Below are positions 21,567 through 48,542 of a stretch of DNA of 64,000 nt, in pieces; positions within the stretch are counted from its first letter, which is position 1; each line of letters opens with the position of its first letter. Location of the stretch: the NCBI GenBank assembly GCA_964431315.1, contig CAYSJH010000008.1, positions 17,561 through 81,560 on the forward strand, given 5' to 3'. Made by a program: the position numbers and the translations under genes. The stretch comes from an uncultured Bacteroides sp. GTDB taxonomy: Bacteria > Bacteroidota > Bacteroidia > Bacteroidales > SM23-62. A model generated the notes under the pieces. The model searched no databases. It had not been told where the DNA came from and saw only the letters and a program-made list of their open reading frames with translations.

Positions 21567-21611
21567 CATCATCCTGTAATCCGGGCGCAAATGTAATAAA
21601 AAACAATCACA

Positions 21612-29163: not shown

Positions 29164-29236
29164 GGCTGTGCCGGATAGGATCAGGCATTCCGCCAAGGAC
29201 AATTTAAAGTGCAATTAAAAGGATCAATAAAGTAAA

Positions 29237-31359: not shown

Positions 31360-31369
31360 CCACGGTCCC

Positions 31370-32590: not shown

Positions 32591-32624
32591 GACCCCTTCC
32601 CCGGTAATGATTAACTTTACAGGC

Positions 32625-33059
32625 ATGAACACACAGCGGATCCAGGAAGAGATCGTATCCGAATTCGAGGTATTCGATGACTGGCTCGACAAGTACGATT
32701 ACCTCATCGAGCTCAGCAATGGCCTGCCCGTCATGGATCCGAGGTATAAGACCAATGAATACCTGATCAACGGGTGCCAGTCAAAGGTCTGGCTGAAAGC
32801 GGAGATCGAGGACGGGAAGGTCACCTTCACAGCCGATTCGGATGCCATCATCACCAAGGGGATCGTATCCCTGCTGATCCGGGTGCTTTCCGGCCATGAA
32901 CCAAAGGAAATACTGGAAACCGACCTTTTCTTTATCGACCGGATCGGACTCCGTCAGAATCTGTCCCCGACCCGTTCGAACGGCCTGCTGGCCATGGTTA
33001 AACAGATGAAATTATACGCCCTTGCTTATCAGACGAGACTGGAAAGAGGCGATAAATGA
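32625..33059 (+). CDS. sufE: Sulfur acceptor SufE
   Basis: SufE motif LINGCQSKVWL with the persulfide-accepting Cys. The ORF track starts at ATG 32607; ATG 32625 (MNTQRIQEEI) gives the more typical length. The start is uncertain. Confidence 0.85.
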   Translation: MNTQRIQEEIVSEFEVFDDWLDKYDYLIELSNGLPVMDPRYKTNEYLINGCQSKVWLKAEIEDGKVTFTADSDAIITKGIVSLLIRVLSGHEPKEILETDLFFIDRIGLRQNLSPTRSNGLLAMVKQMKLYALAYQTRLERGDK

Positions 33060-33070
33060 GCCACCCGGGG

Positions 33071-33116
33071 CGAATGTGCAATGATTAAAACGAATGTGCA
33101 GTGATTAAAACAAATG
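33071..33116. repeat. 20-bp tandem duplication (2 units plus a partial third) across the start region of the DUF59 gene
   Basis: CGAATGTGCAATGATTAAAA (33071-33090) is followed by CGAATGTGCAGTGATTAAAA (33091-33110), then CAAATG. Confidence 0.9.
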
Positions 33117-33118
33117 AA

Positions 33119-33442
33119 ATGGAACCCGAAAACGAATTTCTTCAGCTTGAGGACAGGATTATAAAAGTCCTTAAAAACATATACGACCCGGAGATCCCGG
33201 TGAATATTTATGACCTGGGACTCATCTATGAGCTCGATGCGGACGATGACAATAATGTCAAGATAAAGATGACCCTTACGACCCCGAATTGCCCCATTGC
33301 AGGCGATATCCTCCGGGAGGTCAGAGACAGCGTGGAAGCCGTGGAGGGTGTAAAATCCCTCGACCTGAAACTTACCTTCGACCCTCCCTGGGATGAGTCC
33401 AATCTCAGCGAAGAGGCAAGGCTTGAACTGGGACTGATGTAA
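33119..33442 (+). CDS. SUF-associated DUF59 / MIP18-family Fe-S assembly protein (SufT-like)
   Basis: Hallmark YDPEIPVNIYDLGLIY and TLTTPNCP motifs. The first possible start is GTG 33101 (ORF track). ATG 33119 (MEPENEF) lies in the same frame and is my preferred start. Confidence 0.82.
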   Translation: MEPENEFLQLEDRIIKVLKNIYDPEIPVNIYDLGLIYELDADDDNNVKIKMTLTTPNCPIAGDILREVRDSVEAVEGVKSLDLKLTFDPPWDESNLSEEARLELGLM

Positions 33443-33501
33443 CATGGGACAGACCCCGGGTATTCCGGCTCCGGAATTCCTGTCCCCCGAACACTCCCGC
33501 A

Positions 33502-34428
33502 TTGGAAAATTCACCTCAAAATACCCTGCGCATCAAGGAAAAAGCCCGTGAGCTGGGATTTCTTGATTGCGGTATTGCCCGTGCGGAATTTCTGGAAGAG
33601 GATGCGGCAAGGCTGGGGGACTGGCTTGACAGAGGCTTTCATGGCCGGATGGGATACATGGAAAACCATTTCGAAAAACGTACGGACCCGCGCAGGCTTG
33701 TCGAAGGCGTACGTTCAGTGATCGTGGTGCTTCAGAATTACCATACCGGCAGGAAACAGGACGACCCCGGGGCCCCGGTGCTTTCAAAATACGCCTACGG
33801 CAGGGATTACCATAAGATCATCCGCAAAAAGCTGAACCGGATGCTGAAATGGATGAATGGAGAGATCGCTCCCTCACCGGGCCGTGTTTTCGTCGATTCT
33901 GCCCCGGTCATGGAGAGGGCCTGGGGTGCGAAAGCGGGACTCGGATGGATCGGCAGGCATTCCCTCCTCCTGAACCGGAAATACGGGTCCTGGTTTTTCC
34001 TCGGGGTAATCCTCAGCGGACTGGAACTTGAACCGGACAGGCCGGTGAATGAGTATTGCGGGGACTGTACCCGTTGCATCGAGGCCTGTCCCACCGGCGC
34101 CATCCTTTCCGGCCGCACGGTCGATGCGACAAAGTGCATATCCTACCTGACCATAGAATTAAAAAACCAGCCCATCCCTCCCGGGTTCCGGGAGAAAATG
34201 CAAAACCGGGTATTCGGATGCGACATTTGTCAGGAGGTCTGTCCCTGGAGCAATAATGCCCACCCGCACAGCGAGGACTGGCTGAAACCCCGCCCGGGAC
34301 TGCTCGAGATGACCCGGGATGAATGGATGGCCCTGGATGAGCAGAAATTCAATCAGTTGTTCGAGGGGACAGCCCTTAAGCGTGCCGGATTCGCCAGCCT
34401 CCGCCGAAACCTCGACTTCCTGCAATGA
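33502..34428 (+). CDS. queG: tRNA epoxyqueuosine(34) reductase
   Basis: 308 aa. Two 4Fe-4S ferredoxin motifs (CGDCTRCIEACP, CDICQEVCPWSN) and the N-terminal QueG-like ELGFLDCGIA. The TTG start is the only start codon available in the ORF. Confidence 0.88.
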   Translation: MENSPQNTLRIKEKARELGFLDCGIARAEFLEEDAARLGDWLDRGFHGRMGYMENHFEKRTDPRRLVEGVRSVIVVLQNYHTGRKQDDPGAPVLSKYAYGRDYHKIIRKKLNRMLKWMNGEIAPSPGRVFVDSAPVMERAWGAKAGLGWIGRHSLLLNRKYGSWFFLGVILSGLELEPDRPVNEYCGDCTRCIEACPTGAILSGRTVDATKCISYLTIELKNQPIPPGFREKMQNRVFGCDICQEVCPWSNNAHPHSEDWLKPRPGLLEMTRDEWMALDEQKFNQLFEGTALKRAGFASLRRNLDFLQ

Positions 34429-34433
34429 CTCCG

Positions 34434-34649
34434 GCAAACCCTGCTGAAAATCCACATTTCCCCGGCATTTTTTAAACCGGCGCTTCAAAATTTCCGCGTA
34501 ATACCGATGGCATTGTCAAATGACGAGCCTACTTTTTGCCGCAGGCAAAAATACATGAGGAATTGACAATACCTGAGGTACGGAAATTTCCATAGGCGCC
34601 TTGTTTAAAAATGCCTAGGTCAGTTTTGTGGATTTTCAGCAGGGTTTGC
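34434..34649. repeat. Nested palindromic element, copy 2 (conserved core 34470-34612)
   Basis: The core matches 21671-21812. The central hairpin lies at 34533-34551. A 23-bp perfect outer inverted repeat, GCAAACCCTGCTGAAAATCCACA (34434-34456), pairs with its complement at 34627-34649. The element fills the queG/yjbQ convergent gap. Confidence 0.9.
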
Positions 34650-35056
34650 TACTCCGAACCGACAATGGTTACTACGATTCGTCGTGTTGAGCGGGGACCG
34701 TCAAACTCACAGAGAAAAATGTTCTGCCAGGTGGAGAGCCCGAGTTCACCATTGAGGATGGGGACGGTCTCGGAGGGCCCCACAAGGCCGGCCTTCAGAT
34801 GGGCATCCCCGTTGCTGTCCTGCGCATCATGCTCCCACACCCCCGGGGGAATGAGCTTTTGCAGAAGGTTTATCACATCGTTCTGCACGGACTGGTCCCA
34901 GTTCTCCTGGATCATGATCGCAGCTGTGGCCCCCTGCACATAGACCGATACTATTCCGTTCTGCACTCCGCTTTTCCTGACCGAATCCTTAACCTGCGTG
35001 GTAATGTCGTACAGGCCGTTCCGTTTATGGGTGCTTATTTGTATAATCTCCTGCAT
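34649..35056 (-). CDS. yjbQ: YjbQ/UPF0047 family protein (secondary thiamine-phosphate synthase-type)
   Basis: 135 aa. Family-typical blocks: GLYDIT, VYVQGATAAIMIQENWD, GDAHLKA and VPILNGELGLSTWQNIFLCEFDGPR. Confidence 0.85.
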   Translation of the reverse strand: MQEIIQISTHKRNGLYDITTQVKDSVRKSGVQNGIVSVYVQGATAAIMIQENWDQSVQNDVINLLQKLIPPGVWEHDAQDSNGDAHLKAGLVGPSETVPILNGELGLSTWQNIFLCEFDGPRSTRRIVVTIVGSE

Positions 35057-35089
35057 TTCGTAAATTTAAGAATTTACGGAAAGATCAGA

Positions 35090-35923
35090 ATGGTCCATAC
35101 AGAATACGAATGGTTTCTCGGCAAAAGCAGGATCTTTGCCCAGGGATGGCTGCCGGATAACCCCCCCCGGGCAGTGGTGAATCTGATTCACGGGATGGGG
35201 GAACATTCCGGGCGCTACGCCCGGTGGGGAACCATGTTTGCGGATTCCGGATATGCCCTGGTGGCGATGGACCTGTTCGGGCACGGGAAGACCGAAGGTA
35301 AAAAGGGACACATGAAAAACTACCAGCTGCTGCTTGACCAGGTTGACCTGATGCTCCAGAAGGCTGAAGAGAATTTTCCGGGCATTCCCCGGATCCTTTA
35401 CGGCCAAAGCATGGGCGGGAATGTCGCGATCAATTATGCCATTTCCAAAGACCCTCCCATATCGGCTCTGATCGCCGATTCACCCTGGCTGCGGCTGGTC
35501 ATTCCTGTCAGTGGGATTGAAAAGGCCTTTTCAAAAATTGCCAACACCCTGGTTCCCGGACTGCGGATCAAGGCCAAGGGCGTGACTGCCGAACGCCTTT
35601 CACACGATCCCGAACACTGGGCCGACCTGAGAGGCGATCCCCTGGTGCACCAGCTGATCTCCGTACGATACGTTCATGAAATCATGGCCATGGGCGAATA
35701 TGCCCTCAAGCATGTGTACAGGATAAATAAGCCTTTCCTCCTGATGCACGGAAACGCCGACGAAATAACCTCACATAAGGCAAGCGAGGAGTTCGTGGCC
35801 AATACATCGACAAGAACCCAGCTGAAAATCTGGGAGGGACTTCGGCACGAGCTGCACAATGAATTCGAGTACAGGGAAGTTTTCAACTACGTCCTGGAAT
35901 GGCTTAAAAAATGGAATCTTTAG
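35090..35923 (+). CDS. Alpha/beta hydrolase (lysophospholipase / monoacylglycerol-lipase-like)
   Basis: Nucleophile elbow GQSMGG, HGMGEHSGRY oxyanion region and a C-terminal HE..E catalytic region. The listed ORF (34799..) runs antisense through yjbQ. ATG 35090 (MVHTEYEW) is the sensible start. Confidence 0.85.
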   Translation: MVHTEYEWFLGKSRIFAQGWLPDNPPRAVVNLIHGMGEHSGRYARWGTMFADSGYALVAMDLFGHGKTEGKKGHMKNYQLLLDQVDLMLQKAEENFPGIPRILYGQSMGGNVAINYAISKDPPISALIADSPWLRLVIPVSGIEKAFSKIANTLVPGLRIKAKGVTAERLSHDPEHWADLRGDPLVHQLISVRYVHEIMAMGEYALKHVYRINKPFLLMHGNADEITSHKASEEFVANTSTRTQLKIWEGLRHELHNEFEYREVFNYVLEWLKKWNL

Positions 35924-35926
35924 ACC

Positions 35927-36910
35927 ATGGATTTCCGTACCGAGGTAAATATTCCTCCTTCAGAAAACAGTATCAGCTACAGGACCGGGATCCTGTTCAT
36001 GGGATCCTGTTTCACGGAAAGCATCGGTTCTCTCATGAAGGAACTCCGCTTCCGGGTCGACGTGAATCCATTCGGGGTTAATTACAACCCTTCCTCGGTG
36101 GCACGGAACCTGTGGACCCTGCTGAACGGGAAGGAATTTAACGGGGATGAACTCGATACGGACGGGGAGAAATGGTTTTCCTTCGACCACCACAGCCAGT
36201 TCTCGCATCCCGACCGGGAGGTCTGCCTGGAGAATATCAACCGCAGGCTCAGGTTTGCACAGGGGCGGCTGAAGGATACCCGGTTTCTCCTTCTCACCTG
36301 GGGCACTGCCTGGATATTCGTCCATAAGAAAAAGGCCTGTGTCGTTTCCAACTGTCACAAACTGCCGGCGGCAAATTTTTCCAGGCATCTGTTATCGGTC
36401 AGCCAGATCGTGGATACCTATACAAAACTGTTCGCGGCCCTTCGAAAGGAGCTCCCCGATCTCCACATCATCCTGACGGTCAGCCCGGTGCGACACTGGA
36501 AGGATGGCGCCCGGCTGAACTCCGTCAGCAAATCCACTCTCATCCTGGCGGCACACAGGCTCACCGAGATGTTCACCTATTGCGATTACTTCCCCGCCTG
36601 GGAGATCGCCATGGATGACCTGCGGGATTACCGCTTCTATGCCGACGACCTGGTCCACCCGGGCAGCCAGATGGTCCGTTACATCTGGGAAAAGTTCACG
36701 GGTGCATGGTTCGATGAGGAAACCCTTGAGATCAGCAGGGAGATCCGCAAACTTGCCAATGCCCGTAACCACCGGCCCTTCGATCCGGGATCGGCACGGC
36801 ACCGGGAATTTTGCGGCAGGCAGCTGGAGGAGGTGCGGAAGCTGGCCTGGAAATATCCCTTTCTCGAGCTCGGGGAACTGGAGCAATACTTCACCGAATC
36901 GTTAAAATGA
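35927..36910 (+). CDS. GSCFA-domain protein
   Basis: 327 aa with the eponymous N-terminal motif (FMGSCFTESIG). It starts 3 nt after the hydrolase gene. Confidence 0.78.
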   Translation: MDFRTEVNIPPSENSISYRTGILFMGSCFTESIGSLMKELRFRVDVNPFGVNYNPSSVARNLWTLLNGKEFNGDELDTDGEKWFSFDHHSQFSHPDREVCLENINRRLRFAQGRLKDTRFLLLTWGTAWIFVHKKKACVVSNCHKLPAANFSRHLLSVSQIVDTYTKLFAALRKELPDLHIILTVSPVRHWKDGARLNSVSKSTLILAAHRLTEMFTYCDYFPAWEIAMDDLRDYRFYADDLVHPGSQMVRYIWEKFTGAWFDEETLEISREIRKLANARNHRPFDPGSARHREFCGRQLEEVRKLAWKYPFLELGELEQYFTESLK

Positions 36911-36996: not shown

Positions 36997-39423
36997 ATGA
37001 AACGATGGATTTCAGTCTTAATAACAGCCTTGCTTTTCCTCTCCCGGGTTGTCTCCCAGGAATCGGGACAGGGGGTCATCGAAGGGCGCATTTACAACTC
37101 AAACAACAACGAGCCGGTCCCCTTTGCCAACATCGTTATCTGGGGAACCTCGATCGGTTCGGTCAGCGATATTGACGGCAGGTTCCTTTTTACCGGGATA
37201 CGTCCGGGATACGTGGAACTGAGGATTTCCTCGGTGGGGTTCGATACCTATGTCTCCGAACAGCTCCTGGTTTCGAATTCAAGCCGGGTGTTCATCGAGA
37301 TCCCGCTTAACGAAAGCAACATTGCCATTGAAGAAATTACGGTAAGGGCCTCCCCGTTCAGGAAGACGGAGGAGAGTCCCCTTTCCATCCAGCGGATCGG
37401 GATCGAGGAGATTGAAAAAAATCCCGGCGGGAACCGCGACATCTCAAAGGTACTGCAGTCCCTTCCGGGAGTCGCCTCAACCGTTTCCTACCGCAATGAC
37501 CTGATCGTGAGGGGAGGCGGATCGAACGAAAACCGTTTCTTCCTCGACGGGGTGGAGATCCCCAACCTCAACCACTTCTCCACCCAGGGGGCCAGTGGGG
37601 GACCCAACGGTATCCTGAATGTTGACCTGATACGTTCGGTGGATTTCTATTCCGGTGCATTTCCGGCCGATCGAGGCAATGCCCTGAGTTCGGTCCTCGA
37701 ATTCAGCCAGATCGACGGCAACAAGGAGAAACTGAAGTTCAAGGGTTCGGTCGGGGCTACCGACCTGGCACTGGCCATCGACGGTCCCATTTCAAAAAAT
37801 ACCACCTACATACTCTCGGTGAGAAGGTCCTATCTGCAATACCTGTTCTCGGTGATCGGCCTTCCCTTCCTGCCGACATACAACGATATGCAGTTCAAGG
37901 TAAAGAGCCGGATCAACCAAAAGAATGAGATCACTATCCTGGGACTGGGTTCCTATGATGTCCTGACCCTGAACCTGGACGCCAACGAGACCGAGGACCA
38001 GCGGGCCATCCTGAAGGCCATTCCTGCAAACGACCAGTGGAGCTATACGGTAGGGGGCGTCTTCAAGCACTTTACCGGGAATGGATACGATACCTGGGTA
38101 ATCAGCCGCAGCCACCTGAACAACGGCGCCTGCAAGTATTATAATAACATCGAGGTGGATACGTTGAAAACTTTCGACTACCGGTCAAATGAAATTCAGA
38201 CCCGGTTCCGTTACGAGCATACTTCGAGGTATGGCGGGGGACTGAAAGTGAATTATGGAGGGGGACTAGAATATGCATATTACGATAATAAAACCTTCAA
38301 CCAGGTCTTTCGCGAAGGACAGCCGGGGACTATTAATTACAGTTCCGAACTGGATATGTTCAGCTGGTCGGCATTCGGACAGCTAAGCAAGGATTTCCTG
38401 AAACAACGGCTCAACCTCTCGCTCGGGCTCCGCATGGATGCCAACAATTATTCGAGCCAGATGAATAACCTGCTGAAACAGTTATCACCCAGGTTCTCCG
38501 CTTCTTACATCATAAGTCCCGGCTGGTCACTTAATTTCAATGCGGGCCGGTATTACCAGCAGCCCCCGTATACCATGCTCGGTTTCCGGACCAACGACGG
38601 TTCCCTTGTCAACCGCGACAACGGCGCGAAATACATTACCGCAGACCACATAGTTGCCGGATTCGAATTCCTTCCCGACGAAAAATCAAAGATCAGCATT
38701 GAAGGATTCCACAAATGGTATTACAATTACCCGGTCTCCGTGCTGGACAAGGTTTCAATTGCCAGCAAGGGCGGTGACTTCGGTACGTTTGGCGACGAGG
38801 AGGTCATTTCCCTGGCCAAAGGAAGGGCCTACGGTGCGGAGTTTCTTTACCGGACGCGGGACCTGGCCGGATTTAACATCATCTTTTCCTATACCCTGGT
38901 CAGGAGCGAATCCGAGGAGATCAGCCAGGGACTCGACCCGCTGGGGACTTACATTCCCAGTGCATGGGACAACCGGCACCTGCTGAACCTGACTACATAC
39001 AGGAAATTCAGGGGAAACTGGCAGGCGGGACTGAAATACCGCTTTGCCGGGGGTATACCTTACACTCCCTGGGACATCCCCTACAGTGAAATGCGGCCCG
39101 CATGGGATGTGCGCGGAAGCGGCTACCTGGATTACACCCGGTTCAATACCCTGAGGCTTAAGGGATTCCATCAGCTGGACCTGCGGGTGGATAAGGAATG
39201 GTATTTCAGTAAATGGAGGCTGAACCTGTACGTAGATGTGCAGAATGTATTCAACTACAAGGCCGATTCACCGCCCAGCCTTTACCAGGTTGAAGACGCC
39301 GCAGGAAACCCGGTCATCCGGAATCCCGGTGATCCTTACATGGACCAGCTTTACAGCCTTAAACAGATCAAGTCCCAAAGCGGTACGGTATTGCCGACCA
39401 TCGGAATAATTGTTGAATTTTAA
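36997..39423 (+). CDS. TonB-dependent outer-membrane receptor with N-terminal CarboxypepD_reg-like domain
   Basis: 808 aa. Signal peptide, carboxypeptidase-regulatory-like domain (GVIEGRIYN...DGRFLFTGI), plug region (RGGGSNENRFFLDGVEIPN), a long beta-barrel and a terminal ...GIIVEF. No SusD-like partner follows. Confidence 0.9.
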   Translation: MKRWISVLITALLFLSRVVSQESGQGVIEGRIYNSNNNEPVPFANIVIWGTSIGSVSDIDGRFLFTGIRPGYVELRISSVGFDTYVSEQLLVSNSSRVFIEIPLNESNIAIEEITVRASPFRKTEESPLSIQRIGIEEIEKNPGGNRDISKVLQSLPGVASTVSYRNDLIVRGGGSNENRFFLDGVEIPNLNHFSTQGASGGPNGILNVDLIRSVDFYSGAFPADRGNALSSVLEFSQIDGNKEKLKFKGSVGATDLALAIDGPISKNTTYILSVRRSYLQYLFSVIGLPFLPTYNDMQFKVKSRINQKNEITILGLGSYDVLTLNLDANETEDQRAILKAIPANDQWSYTVGGVFKHFTGNGYDTWVISRSHLNNGACKYYNNIEVDTLKTFDYRSNEIQTRFRYEHTSRYGGGLKVNYGGGLEYAYYDNKTFNQVFREGQPGTINYSSELDMFSWSAFGQLSKDFLKQRLNLSLGLRMDANNYSSQMNNLLKQLSPRFSASYIISPGWSLNFNAGRYYQQPPYTMLGFRTNDGSLVNRDNGAKYITADHIVAGFEFLPDEKSKISIEGFHKWYYNYPVSVLDKVSIASKGGDFGTFGDEEVISLAKGRAYGAEFLYRTRDLAGFNIIFSYTLVRSESEEISQGLDPLGTYIPSAWDNRHLLNLTTYRKFRGNWQAGLKYRFAGGIPYTPWDIPYSEMRPAWDVRGSGYLDYTRFNTLRLKGFHQLDLRVDKEWYFSKWRLNLYVDVQNVFNYKADSPPSLYQVEDAAGNPVIRNPGDPYMDQLYSLKQIKSQSGTVLPTIGIIVEF

Positions 39424-39452
39424 GACCTAAAGGGGAACAAAATTTTCGTGAA

Positions 39453-40187
39453 ATGAAACTTCAGATCTTCCTGCTCATCCTGTTAAGCAGCCTGGCAGCC
39501 TGCAAATCCGGCAAGGTCCAGGAACAACCCTTAAAATCGGAACTTACGACCAATGCATCGGGTAAAGGTCCCGTCGTATACCTTGATTTTAAAAAGGGTC
39601 CCGCCCATAACCACCCCTCATTCGTTCTCTGGGCCGAAGATCTGGATGGGAATTTCATCCAGACCCTTTTTATCTCAAAAGCAGTGGGAACCAGCGTTTA
39701 TGAGCACGGGAATCCCTCCTCCGGGCACTGGGAAGCGGGAGAGATCCGCAGGCCGGCATCCCTGCCTTACTGGTCGCATCGCAGGGGGATACAGGCGCCG
39801 GACGGACTTTATGTCCCATCGGCCGAAAATCCGGTCCCCGATGCCTACACCGGAGCCACACCTCCAGGAGATTTCGGCATACACGCCCGCTTCGACAGGG
39901 AACCGCCCTCTAAGTTCAGGCTTTATTTTGAGATCAACCAGACGTGGGACTGGAATGAATACTGGACAAATAACCTGTACCCGGACGACGATGAATACAA
40001 AACCTCCTGCCAGCCGGCCCTGGTTTACATGTGCGAGGTGGATCTTGATCACCCTCAGCCGGAATACACCATGAAGGTCATCGGGCACAGCCATTATTCG
40101 GGAAAGACCGGGGAACTGTTCACCGACCTGGGCACCATTACCACGGCCCTTCAAATAGTCGGTTCGCTCACGGTTAAAATCCTGTAG
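39453..40187 (+). CDS. Hypothetical lipoprotein (possibly DUF2271-like)
   Basis: 244 aa with a lipobox LAAC. Blocks HPSFVLWAEDLDGNFIQTLF, LPYWSHRRG and DAYTGATPPG recall the DUF2271 pattern. This is recollection, not a search result. Confidence 0.7.
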   Translation: MKLQIFLLILLSSLAACKSGKVQEQPLKSELTTNASGKGPVVYLDFKKGPAHNHPSFVLWAEDLDGNFIQTLFISKAVGTSVYEHGNPSSGHWEAGEIRRPASLPYWSHRRGIQAPDGLYVPSAENPVPDAYTGATPPGDFGIHARFDREPPSKFRLYFEINQTWDWNEYWTNNLYPDDDEYKTSCQPALVYMCEVDLDHPQPEYTMKVIGHSHYSGKTGELFTDLGTITTALQIVGSLTVKIL

Positions 40188-40313
40188 TTCGGTCCCATTC
40201 CGGAAAATTGTCTGCTCCCCCGGTAAATTTACTCAGGGTCACCTGCGATATCTGCCTTCCGGTAGTGGAATGGTTTTTGTAATTTTATAACTTTACAACA
40301 GAAACCCCAGACC

Positions 40314-41102
40314 ATGAAAAAAGCAATTCTGCTTCCGGCAATGATCCTGCTGGCACTCGCCATGCAGGCCCAAACCAATTACAAGGTGATAAAGGTCAAC
40401 GGCAGCATCCAGTATGTGCGCACGGGCAGCCAGATGACGCTTGGCGATGTATTTACCGAAGACGAGGCCCTCTCCTTCGGGACACCCAACTCCAGGGCCG
40501 CCGTGATCAACCCCGAGAAAGGAAGGTTCATTATCACGCCGCAGTCCGCCAGCCAGCTCAGCGGGGCCAGGTCCAATTTCCTGCCGGCAATAAGCAACCT
40601 GAGCACCCGCGGAGGATTCCTGAACTCCATGAACGACATTGTCAACCAGTTTTCGGGACCCCTGGTCATCCTCTACGAAGCAAGCTGGTCCCTGAATCCC
40701 TACCAGTTCCCGATGGATGAGAACCGGTATTTCTACCTCCTGCTCCGTTACAAGGGCAAAACCATCAAGAAGAAGCTCCTGTGCAACGATAACAACCTGG
40801 TCTTTTCCCGCAAAGATATCCTGACGATTGACGGTCAGCCCGTCAGCACATTTGACAGTCCCGCTGCAAGCCTCTACTATGCCGCCCAGAATGGTCCCAT
40901 GTTCGTGAGTTCTTTCGAACTTGTCTTTCCGGATATGAAAACGCTCAGATCCGAGGCCGCAATCATTCTTGAAGAATTGAGCAGCCAGGACTACAACCGC
41001 AAGGTCAACGAGATCTCAGGATATCTTTTCGAATTTTACGGCAAGCCCGATAAAAAGGATGTGATGCTGTTCGTTGAAAAGGATTTCGGACTTAAGAAAT
41101 GA
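40314..41102 (+). CDS. Hypothetical secreted protein (N-terminal FecR-like beta-rich region, tentative)
   Basis: 262 aa with a signal peptide (ALAMQAQ). YKVIKVNGSIQYVRTGSQMTLGDVFTEDEALSFGTPNSRAAVIN resembles the FecR-domain pattern. No other motif recognised. Confidence 0.7.
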   Translation: MKKAILLPAMILLALAMQAQTNYKVIKVNGSIQYVRTGSQMTLGDVFTEDEALSFGTPNSRAAVINPEKGRFIITPQSASQLSGARSNFLPAISNLSTRGGFLNSMNDIVNQFSGPLVILYEASWSLNPYQFPMDENRYFYLLLRYKGKTIKKKLLCNDNNLVFSRKDILTIDGQPVSTFDSPAASLYYAAQNGPMFVSSFELVFPDMKTLRSEAAIILEELSSQDYNRKVNEISGYLFEFYGKPDKKDVMLFVEKDFGLKK

Positions 41103-41155
41103 GACGGGCCAGCCGCCCGGTTCCTGACTGCTAAATACCCTGAAAATCCCCTGCA

Positions 41156-44100
41156 ATGAGGATATCTGTACCTTTGCTCCTGCTCCTTCCCTGGTTCCTG
41201 GCGGCCCCGGCAGGGGGACAAAACCTCAGGCTCCCGATAGCCAACTACACCAACAAGATCTACGGACGCAACTACCGGGCGACCAATTACTGCATCGTCA
41301 CCGATCACCGGAACCTGGTTTACGCCGGGAATGCCAACGGGATACTGGAATACGACGGCAGCCGCTGGCATTTCATACCGGTACGCCAGGGTGCCTATGT
41401 CACCTCTATGGACGTTTCCCCATCCGGAATTATATTTGTCGGCTCGCAACAGGATTTCGGGTACCTGGACACGGACCCGAAGGGAGCATTGGTTTACCGC
41501 TCCCTGTCAGACGAACTTCCCGAGGGGGACCAGTTTTTCACACGAATCTGGGGCACCCATGCGGCCGGTGAATTTACCGCTTTCCAGGCAGAGGAATGCC
41601 TTTACCTGTACAGGGGCGACAGCCTCGTGGCCATCTATCCGGAAACTTCGTTTCACACCTCCTTCCTGGTCGGTTCCCGGTTGTTTATCAGGGAAAGGGA
41701 AAGGGGACTGGAAATACTCCAGGGGAATGTCCTGGTGCCCGTGAAGGACGGATCGCTTTTTGCCAACCTGGGCATATTCGGGATGTTCCCGCTGGACGGG
41801 GAAGGCAGGATCCTTATCGCAACCACCGAAAAAGGATTCTACCTCTTCGATCCCGCAAAGGGGATTGAACGCATGCCCGCCAAAAACGATCCCTTCCTGA
41901 TCCGGGCAGGCATTTTCGGGGGAACGGATCTTGCCGACGGGAATATCGCCCTCAACACCCTGCACGAAGGGGTCCTGATCTGCAGCCCTGACGGCCGTAT
42001 CAGGGCGGTCATCAACAAACACTCCGGCCTGCAGGTCGACGATGTCAAGGACATGTGCCAGGATGTCAACCGGAACATCTGGTGTGCCCTGGACAACGGG
42101 ATCAGCAAGATCGACTACTCTTCTCCCGTTTCGTTTTATTATGAGAACGCGGGACTGGAAGGCAGTGTGCATGCACTGGTAAGGCACGGGGGACGGCTTT
42201 ATGCCGGTACCACCTCCGGGCTTTTTGCCGAAGACCGGACGGTGGCCCTGAATAAATCCCTCGAGTTCAGTCCCGCTGCGGGCATACGCGACCAGGTCTG
42301 GAGCCTCCTGTCTATCGGGAATTCACTCCTTGCAGGATGCACCAACGGGCTTTACCTGATCCGGGAAGGATCCGCGAGGAAAATCTCGGATATGAATGCC
42401 TTTGCCATGCTGTACCTGGAAAAGGAACGGTTGCTGCTGGTCGGGGGGAGCGGGGGACTGGCGGTTTTCAGAAGGGAGGGGGACTGGAAAAAGGTAGCCC
42501 GGTTCGCCGACATCAGGGAGGACATCAAGTCCATCGCCCAAAACCGCAGCAGTCATTACAATGCCACAGAAATATGGCTGGGTACCAGCCTGCAGGGGAC
42601 CCTGAAGATGCTGATCAATCCCGATCTTTCCCATACCACCTACCGGTATTTCGGCGCGGGGGACGGGCTGACGGAGGACTGGGTGCTGCCGATGGAACAC
42701 CGCGACAGCATTGTGTTCGGCACCCGGGCGGGACTTATGCATTTCATCGACGAATACCTGATGCAGGAGGCCCTGCCCGATTCCCTGAAGGACAACCCGG
42801 CAAATTACCGGGGGTATTTTGAGAACCGGAAGCTGTACGAACATGACATCCTCCTTCCCGTGAGCTACCTTGTCGATTCCCACAAGCGGACCTGGGCCGT
42901 GATCGATAACGAGATTTGCCTCATCCGGCACGATTCGTCACAGGAGATCATCAAAAAACCCTTCCAGGGAATCGACCTGGGCGATATCAATTACATTTAC
43001 CCGGACGGCGAATACACCGTATGGTTCGCCGCCGGTGACGGGCTGGCCCGGTTCGACCTCAGGCGAATGGATCAACCGGCCAGGGACTTTCATGCCTTTA
43101 TCCGTGCAGTCGTGGCCTCGGATGATTCCATCCTTTTCAACGGATCCTACGGGCTGCCTGCAGACTATTCCCCCGGGGAGTCCCGGGAGCTTTTCATGCA
43201 ACCGGACAGGGACGTGCCGACACTGGACCATGCCTTCAACGATGTGACCTTCTATTTTACCTCTCCCTTTTATGACAATGAAAACAACAACCAGTTCTCC
43301 TGGATGCTTGAGGGAGGGAAATCGGGCTGGAGCAACTGGTCCACCCGCAGGATCACGAGCTACACCAACCTCCATGAAGGGGAGTATGCTTTCCTGCTTC
43401 GGGCGAAAAACATCTACGGCGACATCAGCGAAACCGCCTCTTACCGTTTTGTTATCCGTCCTCCTTTCGCACGCACCGCCCTGGCCTACACGGGCTATGC
43501 TGTCCTGCTTATCCTGCTTGTTTATGTAGCCGTCAGGCTGGGACAAAGGCAGCTGAAACGGAAAAACGAGCACCTGGAGACCATTGTGCTTGAGCGGACC
43601 GAGGAGATCAGGAAGCAGAACATCAAACTGGCCGCGCAGAAAAAGGAGATCACCGACAGCATAACCTATGCCGAGCGGATACAAAGGGCCATCCTGCCGC
43701 GGACCGACCGGATCGCCTCACAGTTGGAGGGATATTTCATACTGTTCAGGCCCAAGAGCATCGTCAGCGGGGATTTCTACTGGCTTGCCGAATCCGGCGA
43801 CAAGATCGTCGTGACGGCGGTGGACTGCACGGGACACGGGGTCCCGGGAGCCTTTATGAGCATGCTGGGGGTCAGCTTCCTGAACAAGATCATCCTGGAA
43901 AACAACACCCTGCAGGCCGATGAGATCCTTAACAGGCTGCGCGACAACGTGGTCAAATCGCTCAAGCAGACCGGCCGGGAAGGGGAAGCCAGGGACGGGA
44001 TGGACATGTCGCTGGTAGTGATCGACCTTCAGAAAATGACCATGGAATTTGCAGGGGCCAACAACCCGCTCTACATGATCCGCGCGAACCGGCTCGACGA

Positions 44101-44416
44101 AACAAAGGCCGATCGCATGCCCATCTCATATCACATCGATTCCATCAAGTTTTCAAGCCACCTGATTCAGTTGAATAAGGGTGATACCATTTACCTTTTT
44201 TCAGACGGTTATGCCGACCAGTTCGGCGGGCCTTCCGGGAAAAAATTCAAATACCAGGCATTTAAGAACCTCCTCTTCGAGAACAGGGACAGGTCAATGG
44301 ACGAAATTAAAAAAGTCCTGGAAGCCACCCTCGAGACCTGGAGGGCTCCGCAGGGACCCGATGGCGAGATCTATGAGCAGGTCGACGACATTCTTGTCAT
44401 AGGTGTCAGGATTTGA
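41156..44416 (+). CDS. Sensor protein: periplasmic two-component-regulator propeller repeats plus Y_Y_Y domain, TM helix, coiled coil and PP2C/SpoIIE phosphatase
   Basis: 1086 aa. Signal/anchor, ~700 aa of propeller-type repeats and a Y_Y_Y-type Ig domain (YTNLHEGEYAFLLRAKNIYGDISETASYRFVIRPPF). These are followed by a TM segment (ALAYTGYAVLLILLVYVAV) and a C-terminal SpoIIE/PP2C region (SGDFYW, VDCTGHGVPGAFMSM, DGMDMS, SDGYADQFGG). Confidence 0.9.
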   Translation: MRISVPLLLLLPWFLAAPAGGQNLRLPIANYTNKIYGRNYRATNYCIVTDHRNLVYAGNANGILEYDGSRWHFIPVRQGAYVTSMDVSPSGIIFVGSQQDFGYLDTDPKGALVYRSLSDELPEGDQFFTRIWGTHAAGEFTAFQAEECLYLYRGDSLVAIYPETSFHTSFLVGSRLFIRERERGLEILQGNVLVPVKDGSLFANLGIFGMFPLDGEGRILIATTEKGFYLFDPAKGIERMPAKNDPFLIRAGIFGGTDLADGNIALNTLHEGVLICSPDGRIRAVINKHSGLQVDDVKDMCQDVNRNIWCALDNGISKIDYSSPVSFYYENAGLEGSVHALVRHGGRLYAGTTSGLFAEDRTVALNKSLEFSPAAGIRDQVWSLLSIGNSLLAGCTNGLYLIREGSARKISDMNAFAMLYLEKERLLLVGGSGGLAVFRREGDWKKVARFADIREDIKSIAQNRSSHYNATEIWLGTSLQGTLKMLINPDLSHTTYRYFGAGDGLTEDWVLPMEHRDSIVFGTRAGLMHFIDEYLMQEALPDSLKDNPANYRGYFENRKLYEHDILLPVSYLVDSHKRTWAVIDNEICLIRHDSSQEIIKKPFQGIDLGDINYIYPDGEYTVWFAAGDGLARFDLRRMDQPARDFHAFIRAVVASDDSILFNGSYGLPADYSPGESRELFMQPDRDVPTLDHAFNDVTFYFTSPFYDNENNNQFSWMLEGGKSGWSNWSTRRITSYTNLHEGEYAFLLRAKNIYGDISETASYRFVIRPPFARTALAYTGYAVLLILLVYVAVRLGQRQLKRKNEHLETIVLERTEEIRKQNIKLAAQKKEITDSITYAERIQRAILPRTDRIASQLEGYFILFRPKSIVSGDFYWLAESGDKIVVTAVDCTGHGVPGAFMSMLGVSFLNKIILENNTLQADEILNRLRDNVVKSLKQTGREGEARDGMDMSLVVIDLQKMTMEFAGANNPLYMIRANRLDETKADRMPISYHIDSIKFSSHLIQLNKGDTIYLFSDGYADQFGGPSGKKFKYQAFKNLLFENRDRSMDEIKKVLEATLETWRAPQGPDGEIYEQVDDILVIGVRI

Positions 44417-44426
44417 CCCCTGAATC

Positions 44427-46655
44427 ATGAAGAAGCTCACTTTATTCTTTGCTTTACTATCCATACTTGCCGGGATGGACTTTCCGCTTACCGGGATGAC
44501 CGCTCCGCCTGACAGCGGGCAGCAGGCAGCCGGGCAGCAGGCAGCCGGGAGGCCTAAAGTGGGACTGGTACTGAGCGGCGGGGCGGCCAAGGGAATCGCC
44601 CACATCGGCGTGCTGAAGGTACTGGAGGAAGCGGGACTTAAAATCGATTACATCGGGGGGACGAGCATGGGGAGTATTGTCGGCGGACTCTATGCCATCG
44701 GGTACGATGCCGATTCACTTCAAAAGCTTGTGGTTACGCGGGACTGGGATAAACTGCTTTCCGACGATATTTCCAGAAGGGACCTGTCCATCGAGGAAAA
44801 GCCGGACTATGATCGTTTCTTTGTTTCCTTCCCACTGGAAGAACGAAAAGTCAAACTGCCGGCCGGGGTGGTAACCGGGCAGAACATCGAGAACCAGTTC
44901 TCGGAACTCTGTGCCCATATTTACAGCATCCGTGATTTCAACGAATTCCAGATCCCGTATGTATGTATTGCGACCGATGTTGAAACGGGAAAGGAAATGG
45001 TATTCCGCCAGGGTTATCTTCCCTCCTGTATGCGAGCCAGTATGGCTATCCCCTCCCTTTTTACTCCCATGGAAATAGATGGTAAATATTACACAGACGG
45101 AGGGGTGGTAAATAATTTCCCTGTCGACCAGGTCAAAGCCATGGGAGCCGATATACTGATCGGTGTTGACGTGGGATTTCAACCCAAATCGGCCGAGGAT
45201 AACATCAACTTCATCAATGTGATCGAACAGACGGTTTTTATGGCTTCCAGTGAGAGGACGGAAGCCAACAGGGATCTGTGTGATATTTACATAAAACCCG
45301 ATCTTGCAGGTTACAATTCACGGTCATTCACTGATAGTGATTCTCTCATTGCCCGGGGGGAGCGTGCGGCCCGTAAATATTTCGACCGCTTCAAAGCCCT
45401 GGCCGATTCCCTGAACGGCATTGAAAACATACCTTATGAAAAACCTTCCTTCGTGGCGCGGGACTCCCTGTTGATCAGGGAGATACGGGTTGAAGGCCTG
45501 GAGCGGGTATCGGGACGGCTGATCACGGGAAAGCTGAACCTGGATGTGCTTGAGAAAGTGACACCGGCCAGGATCTCCGAAGCCATCAGCAGGGTTTATT
45601 CAAGCCTTTTCTTTGAAAAAGTCACCTACGAGCTTGAACCTGTGGAGGCTGACCTGCTGGGCGAGGGGGTCAGGCTCCGCGTAAAGGTCCGGGAAAGAAG
45701 CGGGGGACAATTACGGGTAGGATTGAATTACAACAATGCCTACAAGGCGTCCATCACCCTGAATACAACCTTCCGCAATTTCCTGCTGAACGGATCCAAA
45801 ACATCCCTGAACCTGGCCCTCGGTGAGAATCCCTACCTGCTGGGCAGGTTCGAGAAAAACAACGGGTGGAAGCCGGGATTTGTAGTGGAGGCAGGGGGAC
45901 AGTATCTTGATCTTGACCTGTACCAGGAGGGAATAAAATACGCCGTCATTGATTACTCGGATATAGCCGGACGGATATATACCCAATCCATTATCAACAA
46001 CTCCTACTCCTTTGGCATCGGAGGGGAATTTGAAAGGATTGTCCTGAAGTCCAAGGTCGGGATCCCGATTCCGGATAAACAGACGGATCAGTACTATAAC
46101 CTCCTTGCCTTCATGAACCTTGATACTTACGACAACCGGTTCTATCCCCGGAAAGGAACCCGTTTCGAGTCGTTCTGCAAATTCATCACGAGTCCCGCAT
46201 CCCCCCCTGCCTGGTTCCTGCGCTTTGAATTCGAACAGGTTGCAGGCATCGGCCGGAATTTTGCACTTATCCCAAGGGTGTACGGCGGCTCAACGACGGC
46301 TGACAGTTCGCTCAGGGTGTATAATTTTTACATGGGGGGACTGAACAGGACCTCCAGGAAAGGGCTGATGCCGTTCGTGGGACTTGACTTCATGGAACGC
46401 TCCGGAAGGAATGTGCTGGCGTTCGGTCTTGACCTGCAGTATAATTTCTGGAAATCGAACTACCTGGTATTCCGGGCAAATGCTGCAAATATTACCGAGA
46501 ACCTGGAGGATCTTTTTCTGTTTGAATACCCGTTTTCCGGATTTGGGCTCACCCTGGGCAACCTCAGTCTGATCGGTCCCGTCGAAATTACCCTGATGCG
46601 CCCCAATTACCGGAAGGAGCTGATATTTTACGTAAACATCGGGTATTACTTTTAA
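44427..46655 (+). CDS. Patatin-like phospholipase fused to a POTRA/Omp85-type beta-barrel (PlpD-like, type Vd architecture)
   Basis: 742 aa. Patatin motifs GGAAKGIAHIGV (oxyanion), GTSMGS (GxSxG) and YTDGGVVNNFP (DGG Asp). These are followed by a POTRA-like segment (IREIRVEGLERVS) and a surface-antigen barrel ending ...VNIGYYF. Confidence 0.88.
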   Translation: MKKLTLFFALLSILAGMDFPLTGMTAPPDSGQQAAGQQAAGRPKVGLVLSGGAAKGIAHIGVLKVLEEAGLKIDYIGGTSMGSIVGGLYAIGYDADSLQKLVVTRDWDKLLSDDISRRDLSIEEKPDYDRFFVSFPLEERKVKLPAGVVTGQNIENQFSELCAHIYSIRDFNEFQIPYVCIATDVETGKEMVFRQGYLPSCMRASMAIPSLFTPMEIDGKYYTDGGVVNNFPVDQVKAMGADILIGVDVGFQPKSAEDNINFINVIEQTVFMASSERTEANRDLCDIYIKPDLAGYNSRSFTDSDSLIARGERAARKYFDRFKALADSLNGIENIPYEKPSFVARDSLLIREIRVEGLERVSGRLITGKLNLDVLEKVTPARISEAISRVYSSLFFEKVTYELEPVEADLLGEGVRLRVKVRERSGGQLRVGLNYNNAYKASITLNTTFRNFLLNGSKTSLNLALGENPYLLGRFEKNNGWKPGFVVEAGGQYLDLDLYQEGIKYAVIDYSDIAGRIYTQSIINNSYSFGIGGEFERIVLKSKVGIPIPDKQTDQYYNLLAFMNLDTYDNRFYPRKGTRFESFCKFITSPASPPAWFLRFEFEQVAGIGRNFALIPRVYGGSTTADSSLRVYNFYMGGLNRTSRKGLMPFVGLDFMERSGRNVLAFGLDLQYNFWKSNYLVFRANAANITENLEDLFLFEYPFSGFGLTLGNLSLIGPVEITLMRPNYRKELIFYVNIGYYF

Positions 46656-46698: not shown

Positions 46699-47709
46699 GT
46701 GAAAACTGCCGAATTTTACCGGATCCGTGAGGACGGAAAACTGCAATGCCTCCTCTGTCCCCATCTGTGCACTCCCGCCAGGGGAAAGGCGGGAAAATGC
46801 GGGGTGCGCAGGAATGTGAACGGGGAATTGATCGCTGAGACCTACGAGAAGGTTTCATCCCTTCATTACGATCCCATTGAGAAGAAACCCCTGTATCATT
46901 TTTACCCGGGAAGCATCATCCTGTCAATCGGTAGCGTGGGTTGCAACCTGGACTGCAGTTTCTGCCAGAACTGCGACATATCCAGGGCGGATGTCCCCGG
47001 TTACCCCTGGTTCAAGGACTATTCCGTCGAGGACGTGGTCAGCATGGCATTGGATCAGCCCGGCAACATCGGCATCTCCTTTACCTACAATGAGCCCACC
47101 ATCTCCTACGAATACATGATGGAGATCTCACAGCTGGCATCTTCCGCGGGATTGAAAACGGCCATGGTATCGAACGGGTACATCAATCCCGATCCCCTGA
47201 TCCGGCTGCTTCCCTTCATGGATGCCTTCAACATCGACCTGAAAGCCTTCCGGGATGAATTTTACCGGAAGTATACCGGGGCGCGGCTTGCCCCGGTCAT
47301 GGAAACCCTGAGGATCCTGAAGGAAGCCGGCAAACATTTCGAGATCACCAACCTGGTGATACCGGGACTGAACGACGACCCGGTCATCTTTGGCGAAATG
47401 GCGGACTGGATCGCCGGGGAACTGGGGGAATATTCGGTACTCCATATCTCCCGTTACTTCCCTCACCACCGGATGAACCAGCCGGCGACACCGGTCAGCA
47501 CACTCGAGGAACTGTACGGCATTGCAAAGGAAAGGCTTCATCATGTCTACCTTGGAAATGTGACTTCCCGGGACGGCCGGAACACTTATTGTCCGCAATG
47601 CGGCGAGCTGCTGATCAGCCGAAACGGTTACCAGACCAGCATCAGGGGTCTTGCTCCGGATGCACACTGCAAAAATTGTAACACTCCCATTCAAAACCTG
47701 GTATTATGA
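46699..47709 (+). CDS. amrS: AmmeMemoRadiSam system radical SAM enzyme
   Basis: 336 aa. N-terminal Cys cluster (CLLCPHLCTPARGKAGKCGVRRN), DPIEKKPLYHFYPGS and the radical SAM motif CNLDCSFCQN. It resembles a PFL-activase. GTG start. Confidence 0.85.
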   Translation: MKTAEFYRIREDGKLQCLLCPHLCTPARGKAGKCGVRRNVNGELIAETYEKVSSLHYDPIEKKPLYHFYPGSIILSIGSVGCNLDCSFCQNCDISRADVPGYPWFKDYSVEDVVSMALDQPGNIGISFTYNEPTISYEYMMEISQLASSAGLKTAMVSNGYINPDPLIRLLPFMDAFNIDLKAFRDEFYRKYTGARLAPVMETLRILKEAGKHFEITNLVIPGLNDDPVIFGEMADWIAGELGEYSVLHISRYFPHHRMNQPATPVSTLEELYGIAKERLHHVYLGNVTSRDGRNTYCPQCGELLISRNGYQTSIRGLAPDAHCKNCNTPIQNLVL

Positions 47710-48542
47710 ATGTCAGAACAGCAAAGGTGGCAGGCGCATTTTACCCGGGCAGTCCCGCCGAGATAAACAGCCTTCTGGACCGGGTCCTGGACTCCGAAAA
47801 AAAGAAAATAGACCTGCGTTTCGCCGGGCATGAGATCTTTGGCTGCGTGGTCCCCCATGCAGGCTATATCTATTCCGCATACGAAGCGGTGCACTTCTTC
47901 GAGATCCTGAGAAGTTCCGGCAAACGCTACGACACCTTCATCATCATCAATCCCAACCACACCGGTTACGGGGAATACATCGAGGTAGACAGCAGCGATG
48001 CCTGGGAAACACCGCTTGGAAGCGTGCCGCTTGACACCGAATTTGCCCGTGCGCTCGAGCTGCCCCGCTCGAACCGTGCCCAGCAGCAGGAGCACTCTGC
48101 GGAGGTAATGCTGCCATTTCTCCAGAAGTTCCTTCCGTACGATTTCAAGGTCCTTCCCATCTGCATGCTCAGGCAGAATCCACTCTCCGCCCTTGAGCTT
48201 GCCGAAAAGATCCGGAATGCGAACGCCCGGCTGAAACGCAAACTGATGATCATAGCTTCCTCCGATTTTTCGCATTTCGAAAGTCCCGATAACGGCCAGC
48301 GCAAAGACGACCTGGTCCTCGAGCAGATCGAAAAACAGGACGCTGAAAAACTATACGATACGGTCATTAAGAACCGGATTTCGGTCTGCGGTTACGGTCC
48401 CATTATGACCCTCATGGAATATTCACGGATGGTCTGCGACGGTCCCCGCTCTTCGATCCTTGCCCGGGGCAATTCGGGCAAGACCCGGCCTTCGGACAGC
48501 GTTGTGGATTACGTCACGATCCTGTTTTACAGTCCGGACTGA
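47706..48542 (+). CDS. amrB: AmmeMemoRadiSam system protein B (MEMO1-like)
   Basis: 278 aa. N-terminal VAGAFYPGSPAEI, VPHAGYIYSA and EHSAEVMLPFLQ blocks typical of the Memo family. ATGA overlap with amrS. Confidence 0.85.
   Translation: MNVRTAKVAGAFYPGSPAEINSLLDRVLDSEKKKIDLRFAGHEIFGCVVPHAGYIYSAYEAVHFFEILRSSGKRYDTFIIINPNHTGYGEYIEVDSSDAWETPLGSVPLDTEFARALELPRSNRAQQQEHSAEVMLPFLQKFLPYDFKVLPICMLRQNPLSALELAEKIRNANARLKRKLMIIASSDFSHFESPDNGQRKDDLVLEQIEKQDAEKLYDTVIKNRISVCGYGPIMTLMEYSRMVCDGPRSSILARGNSGKTRPSDSVVDYVTILFYSPD

Follow-up and report, generated by a model that had tools for sequence, protein, structure and literature searches.

In a 64,000-nucleotide (nt) stretch of DNA from an uncultured Bacteroides sp. 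(assembly GCA_964431315.1, contig CAYSJH010000008.1, positions 17,561 to 81,560 of the forward strand; this whole stretch is referred to as the window), five consecutive plus-strand open reading frames (ORFs) encode a TonB-dependent receptor (TBDR), a lipoprotein of 244 amino acids (aa), p244, a secreted protein of 262 aa, p262, a membrane-bound sensor phosphatase of the PP2C type and a patatin-Omp85 protein, PatOmp. We consider it likely that this block, together with the mechanisms that we propose for its parts, is made up of three envelope modules with separate functions that adjoin one another in this lineage only, i.e. TBDR-p244 (module 1), p262-PP2C (module 2) and PatOmp (module 3). Two conserved, hitherto undescribed gene pairs plus one ordinary PlpD-like gene explain the block best. 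The elements concerned are the following:

36997-39423, plus strand: TBDR, 808 aa (PF13715, PF07715, PF00593)
39453-40187, plus strand: lipoprotein p244, 244 aa, with signal peptide and Cys17; distant relative of DUF2271
39840-39863, plus strand: p244 codons D130-A-Y-T133-G134-A135-T136-P137, by motif conservation a putative flavinylation site with flavin mononucleotide (FMN) on T136
40188-40313, no strand: 126-nt gap between p244 and p262, boundary of modules 1 and 2
40314-41102, plus strand: secreted/periplasmic protein p262, 262 aa, with type-I signal peptide and no Pfam or PDB match
41156-44416, plus strand: sensor phosphatase (PP2C protein), 1086 aa (PF07495 and PF07228)
44427-46655, plus strand: PlpD-like patatin-POTRA-Omp85 protein (PatOmp), 742 aa (PF01734 and PF19143)

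A preliminary description of this region had reported the five genes and intergenic distances of 29, 126, 53 and 10 nt, and we find exactly these coordinates. Much of its account of the single products also stands. All five proteins carry an N-terminal signal sequence, in line with the envelope targeting that had been proposed for them; p244, the gene next to the receptor, has no SusD domain, i.e. the receptor indeed lacks an adjacent SusD partner; Y_Y_Y and SpoIIE/PP2C domains plus a second hydrophobic segment identify a membrane sensor with PP2C output; Patatin and Omp85_2 domains in the 742-aa protein agree with an outer-membrane-anchored phospholipase; and Pfam scans of the block detect neither an extracytoplasmic function (ECF) sigma factor nor a histidine kinase nor a DNA-binding output. 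What has to be revised is the way in which these parts belong together.

The block splits at fixed joints

Our neighbourhood comparison covers 171 related loci overall. Among them are two sets of 80, one from genomes with p262 as anchor and one from metagenomes with p244 as anchor, onto which all window proteins were mapped. In a reverse survey the periplasmic domain of the sensor alone served as query, and the contigs of ten homologues were taken. Close relatives, i.e. those with a p262 identity of at least 52%, often retain the complete five-gene order (about eight loci; L004, L005, L094 and others). This conservation of the full block is uninformative, however, because the housekeeping flanks of the same relatives (S33 hydrolase, GSCFA, radical-SAM and Memo genes) are equally syntenic.

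The block falls apart at greater distance and even among these relatives. Of 57 p244-anchored metagenome loci, 55 have a TBDR ortholog on the strand of p244 and within 400 bp upstream of it; p262 follows p244 directly in only 3 of 56 loci, PatOmp does so in 4 of 56, and most p244 loci contain TBDR and p244 without p262 and PP2C. The reverse situation, p262 and PP2C without TBDR and p244, is found in L003, L006, L012, L018 and others. In L003 and L006 the GSCFA gene runs straight into p262(-PP2C), the TBDR gene is gone, and p244 is gone or reduced to a remnant. The remnant in L003 (4063-4248, residues 27-114, 40% identity) is located between GSCFA and p262 and is thus the footprint of a deletion that removed TBDR and most of p244. 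Three loci (L085, L086, L088) have the order TBDR-p244-PatOmp with both p262 and PP2C missing, and in L002 PatOmp is missing and the PP2C gene runs straight into the radical-SAM gene. The p244-p262 gap holds insertions of 2-6.6 kb in L007, L010, L089, L091, L092 and L095, and other relatives have deletions of one or the other side of this gap. The 126-nt gap is the evolutionary boundary between modules 1 and 2, and, as the block splits at fixed joints among its relatives, three modules result: TBDR+p244, p262+PP2C and PatOmp.

Transcription signals have to be weighed on the other side. Plus-strand terminator-like sites are absent from all four gaps of the block, all of them lying within genes, and scans for sigma-70 promoters and terminators yielded background levels. 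The exact Bacteroidota -7 element TAnnTTTG is likewise absent from the four gaps; the 126-nt gap contains a 7/8 match (TAACTTTA), and the number of exact copies in the window is at chance (21 versus 22.9 expected). Many gene starts in the window have an exact copy ahead of them at a distance between a few and about 70 nt, e.g. at 2421, 3458, 6021, 23213 and 27647 on the plus strand and at 21588, 27628, 54466 and 60514 on the minus strand. The short gaps (10-53 nt) and the lack of predicted intergenic terminators speak against a strict separation of the modules insofar as they leave room for co-transcription, and the block genes may be co-transcribed in this organism. Co-transcription would then reflect genome packing, not a shared pathway, and the evolutionary case for separate modules would stand unchanged.

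The preliminary description had seen in the block one trans-envelope signalling unit composed of receptor, periplasmic sensor, cytoplasmic output and effector, and had named independent occurrence of the genes in related genomes as evidence to the contrary. In such a system the TBDR would sense a ligand, p244 and p262 would relay the signal through the periplasm, the PP2C domain would be the output and PatOmp the effector. Shared strand and tight spacing, the missing terminators and the retained order in close relatives agree with this idea. Yet the survey of neighbourhood conservation proposed at that time finds the full block kept only in those close relatives, where synteny extends to the housekeeping genes, and split elsewhere, the pairs occurring alone at greater distance. 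Moreover, an STN domain is missing from the TBDR, no FecR signal could be seen in p262, and p244 resembles a redox family. As the genes occur independently across loci, the five-gene unit fails, and we regard a single system as highly improbable. The idea of a periplasmic sensor coupled to a cytoplasmic output survives in reduced form, namely for the conserved pair of p262 and PP2C, to which TBDR, p244 and PatOmp do not belong.

Module 1: a TonB-dependent receptor and a putative flavoprotein partner

The 808-aa TBDR consists of a CarbopepD_reg_2 domain, a Plug domain and a TonB-dependent barrel according to Pfam, and the Pfam scan reveals no STN signalling domain. With 45 bits against TIGR04056 (cut-off 368) it remains far below the grade of a SusC/RagA protein. 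In L162 (8255-11455, minus strand), beside a homologue of the PP2C sensor, a DUF4249 lipoprotein accompanies another TBDR of the CarboxypepD_reg type, showing that the layout of a TBDR plus a small lipoprotein recurs with unrelated lipoproteins.

Its partner p244 has a signal peptide and a lipobox with Cys17, which is at least 90% conserved in the family. The protein matches neither Pfam (even at E<=10) nor NCBIfam families, and searches against the sequences of the PDB with the single sequence or the family profile (alignment A1) gave nothing meaningful. The family comprises 1955 hits, none of which has a Pfam domain; they are annotated as hypothetical and come mostly from Bacteroidales metagenome bins. 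A confident AlphaFold2 (AF2) model of p244 is a beta-sandwich (pLDDT 82), for which Foldseek returns generic C2-like sandwiches only. Five residues, D130, T133, G134, T136 and P137, are invariant in alignment A1, and the pattern D-x-x-[S/T]-G-[A/P/S]-T-P is present in all 120 p244 homologues retrieved (G-A in 97, G-P in 23). In the AF2 model this motif sits in an inter-strand loop formed by residues 121-139.

ApbE flavinylates proteins at the motif [S/T]GA[S/T], FMN being attached to the last Ser/Thr (PMC8238504). DUF2271 proteins have been shown experimentally to be ApbE substrates with such a motif and are encoded in PepSY-like/DUF4198 clusters, to which a role in the reduction of iron in the periplasm has been ascribed (PMC8238504; PMC11870441). 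When 60 aligned p244 family members were scanned singly, DUF2271 (PF10029) was the sole recurring weak match, with sub-threshold hits in 16 of the 60 (best E 0.0015). The notion of a lipoprotein with DUF2271-like blocks, put forward in the preliminary description, thus stands as far as the lipobox and a remote resemblance of the family are concerned; it does not extend to a Pfam match of the window protein itself. This resemblance argues against the proposal that p244 would be a signalling part, as DUF2271 proteins are a redox family and ApbE substrates unrelated to signalling.

A further link comes from Chondrinema litorale, whose 342-aa homologue, the sole plasmid-borne one found, is 40% identical to p244 over residues 34-243:

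8620-9648 of L161 (plasmid NZ_CP111056.1, 108770-109798): Chondrinema litorale fusion protein of DUF4405 and a p244-like domain

The N-terminus of this protein contains two to three transmembrane (TM) helices and matches DUF4405 with 27.0 bits (cut-off 26.7), and its C-terminal part yields a sub-threshold DUF2271 match of 17.3 bits that covers an SGAT motif at residue 226. Published work identifies DUF4405 as a flavinylation-associated cytochrome with haem b (PMC11334425), so that the fusion links the p244 domain to transmembrane electron transfer. The fusion gene is located upstream of a sigma-70/FecR/SusC/SusD set.

Based on the conserved gene pair, the invariant motif, the remote DUF2271 similarity and the fusion, we propose that p244 is a redox partner of the TBDR with covalently bound FMN, serving reductive uptake, possibly of iron. 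The TBDR would import an oxidised substrate, most plausibly a ferric chelate. The periplasm-facing lipoprotein p244 would carry FMN covalently on Thr136, attached by an ApbE enzyme encoded elsewhere in the genome, and would connect a membrane cytochrome as electron source with the imported substrate, which would thereby be released or taken up reductively.

Several observations weigh against this scheme. The motif reads TGPT instead of TGAT in 23 of the 120 homologues. Window p244 does not match PF10029 at E<=10 (gathering score 27.3 bits). Neither the window nor the 171 loci yielded an ApbE-like ORF in a phmmer search with E. coli Ftp, Pfam scans of the window ORFs did not reveal an ApbE gene either, and none of the Bacteroidales loci has a PepSY, DUF4198 or cytochrome gene beside p244, which is why the redox chain is hypothetical. 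In other lineages the recurrent neighbours of p244 are unrelated (ABC ATPase, YccF, sigma-54 activator, KdsB and others). As ApbE is not encoded near p244, enzyme and electron donor would have to be encoded elsewhere. A distant apbE gene is a plausible option, given that NQR and RNF also rely on ApbE. Finally, the TBDR is tied to iron only by loose synteny with the suf operon and by nothing direct; the assignment of iron thus draws on analogy and on the recurrent suf-QueG synteny, and iron should be read as a suggestion.

This synteny concerns the order sufBCDSE, QueG, S33 hydrolase, GSCFA, TBDR and p244 (window 27715-36910), which recurs in many p244 loci, L089, L112, L122, L132, L137 and L154 among them. 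The gene directly upstream of the TBDR is

35927-36910, plus strand: GSCFA-family protein (PF08885, E 5.8e-85)

and it occupies this position in 28 of the 33 p244-anchored loci with enough upstream sequence. We considered GSCFA as a third member of module 1 and kept it as a neighbour, adjacency being accompanied by no functional clue; a role as third partner or a loose connection with iron is possible.

Alternatively, p244 might be a structural, non-redox lipoprotein partner of the TBDR, similar to DUF4249 or SusD-like lids, in which the T-G-A-T-P motif would form a contact or ligand-binding loop. The position of p244 is the same as that of the DUF4249 lipoprotein downstream of the CarboxypepD_reg-type TBDR in L162, and a structural role would also suit the missing ApbE gene, the sub-threshold nature of all PF10029 matches, the Pro in the motif of 19% of the homologues and the generic Foldseek result. 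It would, however, leave the fit of the invariant D-x-x-[ST]-G-A-T signature to the ApbE motif, the fusion of the same domain to a DUF4405 cytochrome and the recurrence of DUF2271 alone among the weak Pfam matches without explanation. We regard this alternative as possible, though doubtful.

In comparison with DUF2271 (PF10029; Meheust et al. 2021, PMC8238504), p244 is likewise small, extracytosolic and beta-rich, has a D-x-x-[S/T]-G-A-[S/T] site, shows weak but recurrent hidden Markov model (HMM) similarity at the level of the family, is tied to a TonB-dependent importer and has a relative fused to the flavinylation-associated DUF4405. In contrast to DUF2271, window p244 is missed by the Pfam model, is lipid-anchored and exceeds the 136-position domain by about 100 residues; one fifth of its family has TGPT; and its fixed partner is a CarboxypepD_reg-type TBDR, with no apbE, PepSY-like or DUF4198 gene nearby.

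Module 2: a sensor phosphatase and its secreted neighbour

The 1086-aa PP2C protein consists of a signal sequence, a propeller/Y_Y_Y region (residues ~23-770), a hydrophobic segment (~771-789) and a PP2C domain (881-1085). As only a single further hydrophobic segment follows the signal sequence, residues 23-770 are periplasmic and the phosphatase domain is cytoplasmic. The protein scores 68 bits against SpoIIE (PF07228, cut-off 25) and 34.8 bits against Y_Y_Y (PF07495), and the metal-site motifs DCTGHG, DGMD and SDGY as well as a C-terminal DD are all present. Residues 801-1077 align with the phosphatase domain of SiaA (PDB 6K4E, E 2.4e-36), the closest solved relative, and the Y_Y_Y region matches the sensor domains of Bacteroides hybrid two-component systems (PDB 3V9F and 4A2L). 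Against the SiaA equivalog NF038263 the protein reaches 190 bits (cut-off 700), and this match is confined to the C-terminal 289 residues. Pfam finds no kinase, receiver or helix-turn-helix (HTH) domain in the protein, and Pfam scans of the window ORFs find no SiaB/SiaC-type partner, STAS or RsbW gene.

The upstream neighbour, p262, has a type-I signal peptide and no TM anchor and is thus secreted or periplasmic. Neither Pfam, even at E<=10, nor NCBIfam contains a matching family, and the PDB sequences yield nothing meaningful with the single sequence or the family profile (A2). A word-indexed search retrieved 193 family members and an exhaustive profile search 1086 clusters at 50% identity, annotated only as hypothetical and mostly from Bacteroidales metagenome bins; Pfam scans of single members gave scattered noise only. 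Two beta domains and, at the C-terminus, a three-helix bundle make up the confident AF2 model (pLDDT 90). Some homologues are lipoproteins with long Pro-rich tethers. Candidate fusions of p262 to an HTH domain were rejected, as the N-terminal extensions of the homologues concerned are Pro/Ala-rich linkers behind lipoprotein signals.

The preliminary description had seen a resemblance of the N-terminus of p262 to a FecR-type sensor domain, and three tests argue against it. Neither PF04773 nor PF16344 matches p262 at E<=10; none of 67 family members matches FecR at E<=1; and alignment of the family profile with a genuine Bacteroidota FecR (from L161, PF04773 E 3.6e-20) by hhalign results in a probability of 0.4%. 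The fetched loci contain no further FecR sequences for a FecR profile. With FecA-FecR-FecI cell-surface signalling the block thus has only a TBDR and a nearby exported protein in common. It differs from that system in that the TBDR lacks an STN domain, block and flanks lack an ECF sigma factor, and p262 lacks a TM anchor, a cytoplasmic anti-sigma domain and any FecR/FecR_C similarity.

The pairing with the sensor, by contrast, is maintained over large distances. A PP2C ortholog adjoins p262 in 18 of the 80 genome loci. Beyond close relatives, p262 homologues with 36-41% identity adjoin full-length PP2C orthologs with 33-40% identity in wholly different flanks, with p262 first in L012, L034, L036, L043 and L027 (partial), PP2C first in L018, L022 and L060, and both divergent in L019. 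The reverse survey sampled six sensor homologues at 34-40% identity, and in five of these cases a gene of the p262 family precedes the sensor gene by 12-56 nt (E values of the p262-family HMM from 1e-89 to 2e-99), and p262 is present in 5 of the 10 sensor-anchored loci overall. Moreover, both genes were lost together in L085, L086 and L088. Adjacency that is kept amid changed flanks and gene order, combined with joint loss, is the usual signature of functional coupling.

How might this pair work? On the basis of the topology and of the conserved adjacency we propose that p262, once exported to the periplasm, would be an accessory to the propeller/Y_Y_Y domain, either by binding a ligand or as a regulatory partner. 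Via the single TM helix the signal would reach the PP2C domain in the cytoplasm and switch it, and the phosphatase would then act on a phosphorylated partner-switching target encoded elsewhere. Physical contact between the two proteins, the direction of regulation and the target of the phosphatase are predictions of this model.

Two observations limit the coupling: four sensor homologues at 31-32% identity, one of them with a class III cyclase output, have no p262, and p262 also occurs without an adjacent PP2C gene in Flavobacteriales. One may therefore ask if the adjacency is mere inherited Bacteroidales synteny, p262 having a general periplasmic role unrelated to the sensor. The wide distribution of p262 (1086 clusters), which in Flavobacteriales is mostly not beside PP2C, would agree with this, and so would a Putridiphycobacter genome that encodes p262 and PP2C proteins at separate places. 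Inherited synteny hardly accounts, however, for an adjacency that outlasts the change of all flanking genes and a permuted gene order, for the joint loss in three loci or for the gaps of 12-56 nt, which suggest co-transcription. We thus consider this explanation unlikely and favour functional coupling of p262 and the sensor.

In Crocinitomicaceae and other Flavobacteriales p262 is found after a small MerR-family gene (PF13411) and before guaA and a LysM protein gene. This arrangement occurs in 30 loci (range L014-L080, e.g. L035 9541-10729) with a gap of about 30 nt, and p262 is often present as two tandem paralogues.

Two known systems resemble the sensor. SiaA from the SiaABCD system of Pseudomonas aeruginosa (PDB 6K4E; PMC7647112) is also a membrane-anchored SpoIIE-type PP2C phosphatase and acts on the SiaB/SiaC threonine-phosphorylation switch (PMC7647112). 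The window sensor, however, has a large periplasmic propeller/Y_Y_Y part in place of the N-terminal region of SiaA, and its fixed neighbour is p262, with no SiaB kinase, SiaC or SiaD cyclase beside it. Bacteroides hybrid two-component sensors (PDB 4A2L/4A2M, 3V9F) share the periplasmic Reg_prop/Y_Y_Y region followed by a single TM helix, whereas the output of the window protein is a PP2C domain (a class III cyclase in some relatives) and not the histidine kinase, response regulator and AraC combination, and the gene is not located beside a polysaccharide utilisation locus.

Further observations concern the relatives of this sensor and its surroundings. In P0465 and P0493 the same propeller/Y_Y_Y sensor carries an adenylate/guanylate cyclase output (PF00211) that replaces PP2C, and at the single cyclase-type locus examined (L167 5001-8042, P0493) p262 is absent. 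In five distant loci TPR-CHAT proteins are found beside the p262-PP2C pair, and in a further one a WD40-caspase protein adjoins p262 (L019 10787-14914, L036 166-6204, L163 8265-10397, L164 8218-11433, L165 8411-11602 and L056 2042-4972); the sensor pair may thus be linked to caspase-like proteases. FGE-sulfatase proteins recur nearby in L051, L168 and L170.

Module 3: an ordinary PlpD-like phospholipase

PatOmp matches Patatin (PF01734) with 120 bits and Omp85_2 (PF19143) with 138 bits, and its patatin domain matches PlpD (PDB 5FQU, E 3.1e-70). The oxyanion motif GGAAKG (GGxKG), the nucleophile motif GTSMG and the Asp motif DGG are all present. Like PlpD from P. aeruginosa and FplA from Fusobacterium (type Vd; PMC11116518, PMC5724010), PatOmp has a patatin domain, the Ser-Asp dyad motifs and, at its C-terminus, an Omp85-type barrel. 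We note no difference from these proteins, i.e. PatOmp is an ordinary member of the family, and its position after the PP2C gene is lineage-specific. The patatin domain of PlpD has been placed in the periplasm and linked to membrane lipid composition (PMC11116518). We see PatOmp as a PlpD-type outer-membrane patatin phospholipase that acts alone.

The 10-nt gap to the PP2C gene raises the question of whether the sensor regulates the phospholipase via a shared operon, so that outer-membrane lipids would be remodelled upon a periplasmic signal. The order PP2C-PatOmp in L004, L005, L007, L010, L091 and L094 agrees with this idea. The presence of PatOmp, however, is independent of the PP2C gene: it is absent after PP2C in L002 and in all distant PP2C loci (L012, L034, L036, L043, L163-L166, L171), and it persists without PP2C, following p244, in L085, L086 and L088. 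Moreover, a cytoplasmic phosphatase has no obvious access to an enzyme of the outer membrane or periplasm. Regulation of PatOmp by the sensor is thus improbable, and we regard PatOmp as a module of its own.

Genomic context

According to Pfam scans of its ORFs the window is ordinary Bacteroidota core chromosome. Upstream of the block it encodes RuvA, SprA, GcvH, InfB-NusA-RimP, LpxD/LpxA, the suf operon and QueG, and downstream there are radical-SAM, Memo and SDR genes. The SprA ORF (2455 aa, 9035-16402, plus strand, PF14349 E 4e-220) encodes the type IX secretion translocon and confirms the host as a Bacteroidota with a type IX secretion system. The radical-SAM and Memo genes (46699-48542, plus strand) overlap by 4 nt and resemble an AmmeMemoRadiSam pair; they are followed by a gene for a HEAT-like 247-aa protein, and no AMMECR1 gene was seen.

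Implications

Taken together, the gene pairs TBDR-p244 and p262-PP2C might both be functional units. p244 would then represent a new class of ApbE substrates missed by Pfam, i.e. a lipoprotein dedicated to one TBDR that mediates flavin-based periplasmic reduction of an imported substrate in Bacteroidales, and p262 a new family of accessory sensors that dock on propeller/Y_Y_Y sensors and gate PP2C-dependent partner-switching, wired to TPR-CHAT proteins in several lineages. We put forward this combined picture tentatively and consider it less likely than not.

For the annotation of Bacteroidota genomes our findings urge caution against reading tight same-strand runs of envelope genes as systems. 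The units of the block were resolved only by deep comparisons, synteny among close relatives being uninformative here. If p244 is flavinylated, ApbE-dependent extracytosolic electron transfer would extend to about 2000 sequence clusters that are missed by current domain models, and flavin chemistry would gain a direct connection with TonB-dependent import in anaerobic Bacteroidales. Should p262 act as a co-sensor, it would provide a handle on the ligands and the logic of the many orphan propeller-PP2C sensors in Bacteroidota.

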